From Nanobdellota archaeon (lineage in GTDB: Archaea; Aenigmatarchaeota; Aenigmatarchaeia; QMZP01): a stretch of DNA of 26,728 nucleotides. A program made the position numbers. This document shows, in pieces, positions 15,001-18,000 of this stretch (position 1 is the stretch's first letter; each line of letters begins with the position of its first letter). The stretch lies in the NCBI GenBank assembly GCA_043814765.1, contig JBDRJQ010000008.1:1-26728 (forward strand), read 5' to 3'.

Positions 15001-18000
15001 AAATTGAAATTTTAAAAGATAATCATATAATTGGTATAGTTAGCATGCTTCCGCAAACAGAAGAAGAAGTAAGAGTTCTTTTTGCTAAAGAGGTTATAAA
15101 CCTATCTGAAGAAGATAGAAAAAAAATAGCAAAAACAGTAAAAAAATACTCATAGCATCATAAAAGATTTAAGACAAGATACTAATTTTTTAAAAGTGGT
15201 GATATTATGGAAAAGAGGCCAATTAAAAAAGACGAGTGGGCAATAGTGCTAGACTTCTTATCTCATGGTCACCACGCTATGGAGAGAACCCAGCCAGTGG
15301 CACAGGTTGTGGGTGAAATATACTTTTCTTTACTGGAAGTTATAGTGAGAGACGATGTATCATTGGAGATAGATGAAAGAGTGTATATTGGAGATGGAAA
15401 GAGAGATAAAATCAAATACATAAGAGGACGGTTAGAATTTGATAAACTTACAGTCTCTGCAAAAGAAGAGCTTTCAGATATAGTAACTAATGTTGTTAAA
15501 AAGAATCCAGAAAGATTTATTAACTTTTACAATAATGCTGGACAGGTAACTACCCGATTTCACCAGCTAGAACTTCTTCCAGGCATAGGTAAAAAGCATC
15601 TTTGGGCCATAATAGATGAAAGGAAGAAGAAACCTTTCGAGTCCTTTGAGAATCTTAAGAAAAGAGTTCCACTTCTTCCGGATCCAGAAAAAACAATTGT
15701 AAAAAGGATAATGGAAGAGTTTTTGGATAAAGACAAATACAGGATATTCGTTCCAAAATTTGAAAAGCAAGACAATTATAGAAGAAGATAAACCCTTTAA
15801 GAAAAGGTTCAATTCAAAAAAACAGATTTAACCAAAAAGGAGGGAATGTGAATGTTAGTAAGCGAAATAATGAACAGTGACATAAAGACCATAAAATCTT
15901 CTGATACTGTTCAAAAAGCTGCAAAATTAATGAACAAGTACAGAATAGGCGGGCTTATAGTAACTAAGAAAGATGGTCTAGAAGGCATAATCACAGAAAG
16001 AGACATAATGACAGGATTAGTTGCACTGGCAAAAGATGCTTCAAAAGTTCAAGTAAAGGAAATAATGCGCACAGATATTATTGTCGTTGAAGAAAACAGA
16101 ACAGTAGAAGACGCAGCTAATATTATGCTGGAAGCCAACGTGAAAAAACTGCCTGTTGTGAGGGGAAAAGAGCTCGTTGGTATAGTTACGTCAACAGACA
16201 TACTCGCTGCTCAACCAAAACAAATGGAAATCATGAGCGATATTCTTGTTTTTCCAAAGAAAGATAGGCCTGTTGCGGGCTAATTAAAAAGTATTTATTA
16301 AGATTCGGTATCATATAACACTATATCGATTGCATCAATTAACTGTATGGGCCCGTAGCTCAGTTTGGCCTAGAGCGCCTGTCTTATATGACTTCTAAGC
16401 GTTCAGCTTAGATCAGCGCTAGGTTAGCAGGAGGTCCTGGGTTCGAAAGCAACCCTTTTTAAGGTGAGCAGGCAAAAGGTCTGCACCCCAAAATGGCTGC
16501 GGAGACTCCCAGCGGGCCCATTTTACTACTAAAAACGAACTAAAAACCGACAATAAGCGTAAGTTTTATATACCCTAAGCACAACTCTTATAAGTCTAAA
16601 CAGTAATCTTATAAGTCTAAACAGTAATAGATGGCATAATGATTGTATAATTAATGAGGTGATATTATGACAAATCCCATGATTGCTAACATTGGCGGAC
16701 AGCCAGTATTGATACTCTCTGAAGGAACTATGAGAAGCAAAGGAAGGGAAGCACAGAGAAATAATATAGCTGCAGCTAAGGCAGTTGCAGACGCCGTAAG
16801 AACTACTTTAGGTCCAAAAGGCATGGACAAAATGCTTGTTGATTCTCTTGGCGACATTGTTATAACGAATGACGGAGCAACAATTCTTGATGAGATGCAG
16901 ATAGAACATCCTGCTGCAAAAATGATGGTAGAGGTTGCCAAAACACAAGACAAGTCTGTTGGTGATGGAACAACTACAGCCGTCGTTTTGGCCGGCGAGT
17001 TCTTGAAGAAAGCAGGTGACCTGCTTGATCAGGAAATTCATCCCACTGTTATCACAAAAGGATTCAGGATGGCAAAGGAAAAAGCACTAGAGGTCTTAGA
17101 TTCAATTGCACAAAATGTTAACATAAAGGATGAAAAAACTCTATTGAACATTGCAAAAACTGCAATGACAGGAAAATCAGCAGATAGAGCTTCTGATGTT
17201 CTTGCAAAACTTTCAGTGGATGCTGTAAAGAAAGTTGCAGAAGAAAATGATGGTAAAATAGAAATAGATAATGATAACATAAAAATCGAAAAGAAATCTG
17301 GCGGATCAATGTCAGATACAACTTTGATAGAAGGTGTTTTAGTCGATAAAGAAGTTGTTCATTCTGGAATGCCAAAAAAATTAAAAAGCGCAAAAATAGC
17401 TTTGTTAGACTTTGCTCTTGAAGTAAAATCTCTAGAAAGCGATGCTAAAATACAGATAAACGACCCTTCACAAATGCAAGCATTCCTTGACGAAGAAGAG
17501 AGAATGCTAAAATCAATGACAGACAAAGTTGTAAAAACAGGAACAAATGTTGTTTTCTGTCAGAAAGGCATAGACGACACTGTTCAGCATTATCTTGCAA
17601 AAGCAGGCATAATGGCAGCAAGAAGAGTAAAGAAATCAGACATGGAAATGCTCGCAAAAGCAACAGGCGCAAAGATTGTTAGCAACGTAAATGAGTTATC
17701 AAAAGAAGATCTTGGTAATGCAGGTCTTGTTCGTGAAAGCAAGGTCTCTGGTGACGACATGATTTTTGTTGAAAAATGTCAGTCTCCAAAAGCAGTTACA
17801 ATTCTGATAAGAGGTGGAACAGAGCACGTTGTTGACGAAGTTGATCGTGCAATGCAGGACGCTGTAAAAGGTCTTATAGCAGCCCTTGAAATCGGTAAAG
17901 TAGTTGCTGGTGGAGGCAGCCCAGAAATGGCTATTGCAAAAGAGCTAAGAAAATATGCAGAGTCATTTAGTGGCAGAGAACAGCTTGCAGTGAATGCATT

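Follow-up and report, generated by a model that had tools for sequence, protein, structure and literature searches.

At positions 16349-16520 of the forward strand, the stretch analysed here (the window, a whole contig of 26,728 nucleotides from an 859 kb, 88.2% complete genome of order QMZP01, phylum Aenigmatarchaeota) very probably carries a single, working tRNA-Ile(UAU) gene that reads AUA, in a genome in which neither the agmatidine synthetase TiaS nor a tRNA-Ile2(CAU) was detected. Decoding of AUA by a UAU tRNA without TiaS looks general in DPANN archaea rather than a trait of this order, and the genes involved commonly share a sequence mark at the base pair that closes the anticodon stem, most often a U31·G39 wobble. 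The UAU solution itself is already published; the breadth of the UAU/no-TiaS state and the 31-39 mark did not turn up in a literature search.

The gene is made up of three exons and two introns, all on the forward strand. Exon 1 (16349..16388) holds the acceptor 5′ strand, the D arm, the 5′ strand of the anticodon stem with U31 at 16382, C32-U33, the anticodon UAU (16385-16387), and A37. Exon 2 (16426..16447) runs from A38 through the 3′ strand of the anticodon stem, where G39 (16427) forms U31·G39, to the variable loop, the T stem 5′ strand, and the T loop up to base 59, while exon 3 (16507..16520) supplies U60, the T stem and acceptor 3′ strands, and discriminator A73; the CCA end is not encoded. 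The exons are separated by a 37-nt intron at the canonical 37/38 position (16389..16425) and a 59-nt T-loop intron at 59/60 (16448..16506). This gene is unannotated because ARAGORN calls no tRNA at 16349-16520 in the window and the Rfam score of the interval (17.7 bits) lies under the cut-off; relaxed ARAGORN settings gave mostly noise, and the gene was recovered with a splice-tolerant script, with acceptor and T stems paired. A TATA-like A/T box behind an A-rich run (16294..16301, forward strand), seen by eye, is a possible archaeal promoter of the gene. Both neighbours lie on the same strand: a CBS-domain protein upstream (15852..16283) has no evident connection with the tRNA, and a thermosome subunit downstream (16667..18325), whose taxon-named close relatives are mostly Aenigmatarchaeota, served to place the genome and to test the meaning of AUA.

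The survey's finding had described an unannotated TAT tRNA gene with an anticodon-loop and a T-loop intron, identified by an Ile-type acceptor stem. The gene and its introns stand, now with exact coordinates and splice geometry, but the acceptor does not serve as an identifier: its seven opening bases are identical in this genome's Ile(GAU), Lys(UUU), Arg(UCU), and Arg(CCU) genes, so that the stem alone is not diagnostic of isoleucine. The acceptor does equal that of Ile(GAU) and differs from that of elongator Met.

Eight possible sites were compared for the anticodon-loop intron, and 37/38 alone produces a 4-bp splice helix with every pair formed (4/4), a relaxed bulge-helix motif in which the 3′ end of the intron pairs with loop bases 32-35 and U34 lies opposite an intron A. 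The predicted fold of the anticodon arm contains the same 4-bp helix and a 3-nt 3′ bulge, and alternative sites that would give GGU or UGU anticodons form no full helix. For the T-loop intron, 59/60 is the best fit, with three of four helix pairs and one mismatch; its core of 19-22 nt also occurs in the T-loop introns of further tRNA genes and recurs at three non-tRNA sites of the genome. The genome encodes both an RtcB and a splicing endonuclease (EndA) closest to PDB 4FZ2 (E 2.5e-94), the ARMAN-2 enzyme, which in vitro cuts a 37/38 intron of pre-tRNA-Ile(UAU) as well as a 59/60 intron (PMC3239211). The helices at both sites and this pair of genes are those of archaeal tRNA introns, and the precursor would be cut twice by the genome's own endonuclease and its exons then joined by RtcB.

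Relatives confirm the anticodon, because natural intronless copies in two of them (L029 and L030, same order) keep the same loop; ARAGORN calls both tRNA-Ile(TAT). Across the phylum we parsed 67 distinct UAU genes, leaving out eight further UAU loci and two others that could not be parsed. An anticodon-loop intron is present in 65 of the 67, at 37/38 in 31 and at 38/39 in 34, and the same loop results from either position. Opposite position 34, these 65 introns have either A (55) or G (10), and all four CAU introns have G.

The distribution of the gene within the order was reproduced as well. A strict 5′-half pattern had been reported as single copy in 49 of 91 order genomes and absent as a reversed control, with introns or gaps suspected behind the remaining 42; our re-run version matched 50 of 91, one copy each, with no match for the reversed control. 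Of four missed genomes that were checked, three do possess the UAU gene, its 5′ half being interrupted by one more intron, while the fourth (G136, 97% complete) yielded just five pattern matches, none of them a UAU gene. One pattern that left the first anticodon base open was run on 100 phylum genomes (99 at least 90% complete plus our own; labels tallied by hand): 48 showed UAU, 47 GAU, 34 a Met-type CAU, and one an Ile-type CAU. Since UAU is seen as often as the obligatory GAU gene, non-matching genomes are mostly explained.

Absence of TiaS (PF08489) from our own genome would prove little by itself given its 88% completeness, but the same result was obtained in all 91 order genomes (23 at least 90% complete) and in all 310 Aenigmatarchaeota genomes at least 75% complete, including 98 that are at least 90% complete and clean. 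The search was positive in four of four archaeal controls and in five of five Thermoplasmatota genomes having Ile2(CAU), and it starts with a loose first filter that could miss a very divergent copy. A second model (PF22641) matched none of 100 phylum genomes, and a real TiaS used as query (tblastn, phmmer) retrieved nothing from our genome. The earlier statement that genome and order lack TiaS is thus borne out in the genomes searched.

Similarly, no tRNA-Ile2(CAU) was found among the 39 tRNA genes parsed from this genome or by motif. This set has gaps, for it includes an elongator Met gene but a canonical initiator tRNA was not found in the 88% complete genome. An odd CAU tRNA (G000:C4:1982-2057) was considered as a hidden Ile2 and set aside, as its acceptor is Met-like and its contig, 2.6 kb long, carries phage-like ORFs. 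The one Ile-type CAU gene among the 100 phylum genomes (G203) is probably foreign: its contig carries unrelated genes, and UAU is present in the same genome. Of the pair that marks the agmatidine system, C34 in an Ile2 tRNA and TiaS, neither was found at this locus or in this genome. It is very improbable that the locus represents a pseudogene or foreign insert, or that its transcript is spliced to another anticodon, with TiaS and Ile2(CAU) residing on a missing contig. Such a reading could draw on the incomplete genome, on the mismatch in the T-loop splice helix, and on the phage-like contig with a stray tRNA in the bin, but it has to contend with an orthologue that 50 of the 91 order genomes carry in single copy, with a sister genome (G049) that has nearly the same exons and a different T-loop intron, with the absence of TiaS from all 98 phylum genomes at least 90% complete, and with the lack of a full helix at other splice sites.

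AUA is both abundant and, on the evidence of aligned sites, read as isoleucine. It accounts for 57.6% of the Ile codons (11,793 of 20,477) across 708 ORFs at least 120 aa long and is the second commonest codon of the genome, in agreement with the previous count on another gene set (13,170 of 22,759, 57.9%), in which it was the commonest Ile codon. When residues of relatives were aligned at codon sites of 30 ileS genes, their own AUA codons set aside, AUA sites held 22% Ile and 3.6% Met among aligned non-AUA cells and AUU sites 20% Ile and 3.5% Met, while Met reached 38.2% at AUG sites. AUA sites therefore behave like AUU sites and unlike AUG sites, as the claim that AUA is read as Ile would have it. 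That the UAU tRNA instead carries Met, with AUA reassigned as in some mitochondrial codes, is scarcely credible. At our own ileS and rpoB loci, Met is slightly in excess at AUA sites: it takes 6.7% of the cells at 111 AUA sites, compared with 2.0% at 70 AUU sites and 38% at 62 AUG sites. It is the top residue at five of the 111 and none of the 70, and fills 28 of 29 positions in one near-invariant column where our genome has AUA. This small excess fits ordinary Met-to-Ile changes, yet it counts against the Ile reading. Reassignment, however, was rejected by the ileS test and by the clear difference of AUG sites, where Met is on top in 25 of 62, by the thermosome, in which Ile is the top residue at 18 of 20 AUA sites and Met at none (a partly circular comparison, as the relatives were translated with AUA as Ile), and by the acceptor shared with Ile(GAU) and not with elongator Met.

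Under the isoleucine reading, the mature tRNA would be charged by an archaeal-type IleRS and would read AUA, and a UAU tRNA that reads AUA makes both tRNA-Ile2(CAU) and TiaS dispensable. IleRS was found in 41 of 41 genomes, and most of 30 aligned sequences conserve a Q-x-x-R motif near the C-terminus, through which charging may proceed. Judged by spacing rather than by alignment, this motif may be the equivalent of Gln996/Arg999 of yeast IleRS, which have been modelled to read U34 (PMC11685878).

Beyond the phylum, searches for TiaS gave no match in the 251 genomes sampled from a Micrarchaeota record's phylum, in the 301 sampled from a Woesearchaeota record's phylum (Nanoarchaeota), or in 15 single genomes behind UAU loci of a species-level scan. 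It was detected in one of 17 genomes of an Undinarchaeota record's phylum, on an 8.9 kb contig; its nearest clusters are mostly Bathyarchaeota and Nitrososphaerota, and the contig is probably foreign. This is the one match among 879 searched genomes of four DPANN phyla, a total in which the Micrarchaeota, Nanoarchaeota, and Undinarchaeota sets are samples rather than censuses and outside which Altiarchaeota and Nanohaloarchaeota lie. A UAU scan of the species-level genome collection returned at least 118 loci. Among the matches listed, 48 were archaeal-titled and comprised Woesearchaeota, Pacearchaeota, Nanoarchaeia, Micrarchaeota, Iainarchaeum, Undinarchaeota, Aenigmatarchaeota, and several unplaced genomes, together with one Thermoplasmata, one Marsarchaeota, and five titled Methanosarcinales, while the non-archaeal loci among them were mostly Patescibacteria. 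The survey had presented AUA decoding by a UAU tRNA without TiaS as a property of order QMZP01: the decoding, the anticodon, and the missing TiaS all hold, whereas the framing as an order trait gives way, as the same state covers the whole phylum and the other DPANN phyla sampled. One early loss of TiaS would, on grounds of simplicity rather than of a tree, best explain this shared state.

The sequence mark lies at pair 31-39. In our genome, a U31·G39 wobble closes the anticodon stem of the UAU gene and is the only real case among the 39 tRNA genes parsed, a second U·G row and two others being misparsed multi-intron genes when checked by eye. U31 is present in 71 of 79 UAU genes of the phylum and in 47 of the 48 archaeal-titled UAU loci among matches listed from the species-level scan, but in only 34 of the 70 bacterial-titled ones. 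In the 67 distinct parsed phylum genes, pair 31-39 is U·G in 45, U-A in 15, C-G in five, G-C in one, and A-U in one, and U31·G39 occurs in 40 of 41 parsed genes of the order. Base 31 is a purine in 34 of 35 GAU genes of the phylum, and one GAU gene has U31·G39. Because related genomes are not independent, these counts demonstrate a conserved mark and not a function, and the mark may have been inherited without one.

The Thermoplasmata record's phylum (Thermoplasmatota), in which 161 of 201 genomes matched the pattern, offers a comparison with CAU genes. The 150 matches listed include 149 CAU genes; each of these, inspected by eye, has a purine at 31, and all 28 Ile2 genes parsed from 30 fetched CAU loci have G31-C39. 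The remaining one is a UAU gene (G331) with U31·G39 and no intron; it lies on a 71% GC contig next to a protein with Thermoplasmata-named relatives, in a genome of which 1.2 Mb yielded no TiaS. Its mean similarity is 36.8 to Thermoplasmatota CAU genes and 31.0-35.0 to DPANN UAU groups, its best single score is to a Nanoarchaeota gene, and these similarity scores do not decide between conversion within the lineage and transfer. Two metagenome scans for more genes like it found none. A scenario in which a single loss of TiaS near the base of DPANN made UAU the norm, the pair U31·G39 (or U31-A39) is a tRNA-encoded element letting U34 read AUA without AUG or escape Elp3, and this element had a second, independent origin in a lineage of Thermoplasmata whose tRNA changed from CAU to UAU, is as a whole, in our view, possible but doubtful.

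A U34 anticodon that reads AUA has also to reject AUG, and among archaea the test made in haloarchaea gave misreading (PMC3895270). Among the mechanisms considered, tuning of the tRNA body through U31·G39 is the candidate we favour, though it falls somewhat short of probable. The mark is directly visible in the genes; functionally, the weak pair would lower affinity for the A site so that U34:G wobble fails or, alternatively, would keep Elp3 from modifying U34, and elongator tRNA-Met would win AUG by competition. Unmodified U34 does tell AUA from AUG in Mycoplasma mobile and Bacillus subtilis, whereas in haloarchaeal Ile tRNAs mutated to U34 this base is converted to cnm5U, and such tRNAs bind AUG on the ribosomes of haloarchaea (PMC3895270). 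Elp3 scores over the cut-off in four of five genomes tested, which counts against body tuning.

The same Elp3 result would be expected if U34 is modified by this enzyme as in other U34 tRNAs, perhaps together with 2-thiolation, and if some misreading of AUG is either accepted or kept low by the ribosome and by tRNA-Met as a competitor, U31·G39 then being an inherited feature with no function. We regard this as possible but not favoured: our genome encodes two PP-loop proteins that we read as Ncs6/TtuA-like, and the M. mobile solution lies in its IleRS and in its ribosome, which itself rejects AUG (PMC3575796), but cnm5U34 Ile tRNAs bind AUG and slow growth in Haloferax (PMC3895270). In addition, with AUA as the second commonest codon, the tRNA should be abundant and its misreading costly, and the retention of a weak pair across several phyla argues for selection.

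Another alternative, which we hold to be unlikely, is that U34 is modified (to pseudouridine or otherwise) before splicing under the direction of the anticodon intron, and that this blocks Elp3, as in yeast. Introns are indeed more frequent in the anticodon loop of phylum UAU genes (65 of 67) than in GAU genes (10 of 20, read by eye in genomes having both), and candidate enzymes exist, with TruD in four of five genomes and a Cbf5/TruB-like gene in all five, over the cut-off in two. A TruA-family synthase was, however, found in none of the five, and yeast Pus1 belongs to that family. Moreover, six of 11 parsed Micrarchaeota-group genes and two genes of the order are intronless, the six nonetheless having U31·G39, and the split of introns between 37/38 (31 genes) and 38/39 (34 genes) would be awkward for one enzyme. 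In yeast, intron-dependent Psi34 of tRNA-Ile(UAU) excludes ncm5U, yet intronless strains barely misread AUG in a reporter (PMC6582322). Body tuning, Elp3 or thio modification, and intron-directed modification need not exclude each other. The 31-39 pair provides a concrete and testable candidate for the AUG question.

Agmatidine decoding has been described as the archaeal rule with few exceptions. One TiaS match among 879 genomes of four DPANN phyla changes that statement; if TiaS was lost once near the base of DPANN, UAU decoding of AUA would be the norm in a very large archaeal radiation. Extra introns make the UAU genes easy to overlook with common tRNA finders.

Although the survey's finding implied novelty, UAU decoding without TiaS is in print. 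ARMAN-2, -4, and -5 have a tRNA-Ile(UAU) and lack both Ile2(CAU) and TiaS (PMC3239211), and Nanoarchaeum equitans and Ca. Korarchaeum cryptofilum have been given as the two archaeal cases of UAU in place of Ile2 (PMC6000648; bioRxiv 10.1101/614032). A literature search found neither a DPANN-wide statement nor the 31-39 mark, although supplements of DPANN genome papers and tRNA databases may hold the presence and absence data as well as the ARMAN sequences.

The ARMAN genomes are the closest match to the system described here: all three share the UAU gene and both absences, the ARMAN-2 gene has a 37/38 intron, and 59/60 introns and the same endonuclease type occur in ARMAN. They differ in that one gene here has both introns, and the 31-39 pair and the avoidance of AUG do not figure in the available text of that study (PMC3239211). 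In N. equitans and K. cryptofilum, a UAU gene likewise replaces Ile2(CAU), but these are treated in the published accounts as rare, species-specific gains (2/167 genomes), whereas the counts here suggest a state shared by whole DPANN phyla. M. mobile, which has tRNA-Ile2(UAU) without TilS, parallels our case in the loss of a C34-modifying enzyme, the UAU anticodon, and the ensuing AUG problem; it differs in its bacterial IleRS type, its lack of introns, and in that unmodified U34 and ribosomal discrimination have been demonstrated in that organism (PMC3575796). Yeast tRNA-Ile(UAU), with intron-dependent Psi34/Psi36, resembles the gene here in its anticodon intron, its UAU, and an Elp3-type enzyme in the same cell (PMC6582322), and differs in that no TruA-family synthase was found in the five genomes here and intronless archaeal copies exist. 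Finally, archaeal tRNA-Ile2(CAU) with agmatidine and TiaS likewise reads AUA on a similar tRNA body, and relative to it the system described here has U34 in place of C34, no TiaS, and U31·G39 in place of G31-C39.

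Across the phylum, anticodon introns of tRNA-Ile(UAU) genes occupy two positions about equally often, 38/39 in 34 genes (exemplified by loci L001-L015, L018, L031-L034 and others) and 37/38 in 31. Beside the U31·G39 wobble pair, the UAU genes of family f4 (L002-L015) also carry a mismatch at pair 27-43, which is C·A in most of them. The sole UAU gene of the order with G31-C39 is intronless (L029; genome G050, contig C3, 63370-63407); it appears to have been recruited separately or acquired by transfer.

Within the host genome (G000), one 18-base core is common to ten sites, all ten inside tRNA introns: eight in T-loop introns and two in anticodon-loop introns. 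Five of these sites lie at C8:23268, C20:14230, C27:15739, C28:38852 and C29:68283, and the other five on a single contig, C35, at 29172, 29261, 29458, 13752 and 10747. A second core, present in the T-loop intron of tRNA-Ile(UAU), occurs in three tRNA introns of this genome and also outside tRNA genes, at C31:4763 and C36:4787, with a near copy at C27:14478. This distribution has the appearance of a small mobile repeat giving rise to introns in tRNA genes. The window itself holds tRNA-Arg(UCU), interrupted by an intron at 37/38 (22991-23104, minus strand), and tRNA-Pro(GGG), whose intron lies in the T loop (23191-23327, plus strand), neither of which was detected by ARAGORN run on the window with default settings. 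The tRNA set of the genome includes two copies each of tRNA-His(GUG) and tRNA-Ser(GCU). A degenerate CAU tRNA with an encoded CCA is found alongside phage-like ORFs on a small contig (C4:1-2640) that is probably foreign to the bin. Elsewhere in the genome, a TruD gene stands head to head with an Ncs6/TtuA-type PP-loop gene (L308; C20:19120-20820), and a second gene of this type, on C35, has Asn at the position of the PP-loop motif where Asp is usual.

Beyond the phylum, among the matches listed, an intron-bearing UAU gene was found in at least five records titled Methanosarcinales (L199, L206, L228, L258, L259). These titles may be wrong, because the three such genomes checked measure 0.9-1.2 Mb and all three lack TiaS. 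A high-GC genome titled Thermoplasmata (G331) encodes an intronless tRNA-Ile(UAU) with U31·G39 (L153, also L374; contig C88, 3929-4004); TiaS was looked for in this genome and not found, and among the matches listed 149 genes of its relatives are CAU. This gene possibly represents an independent CAU-to-UAU switch outside DPANN. Non-archaeal matches to the UAU pattern numbered 70 among those listed (L149-L266), mostly from Patescibacteria, and these pattern matches suggest a putative parallel loss of TilS in that group.
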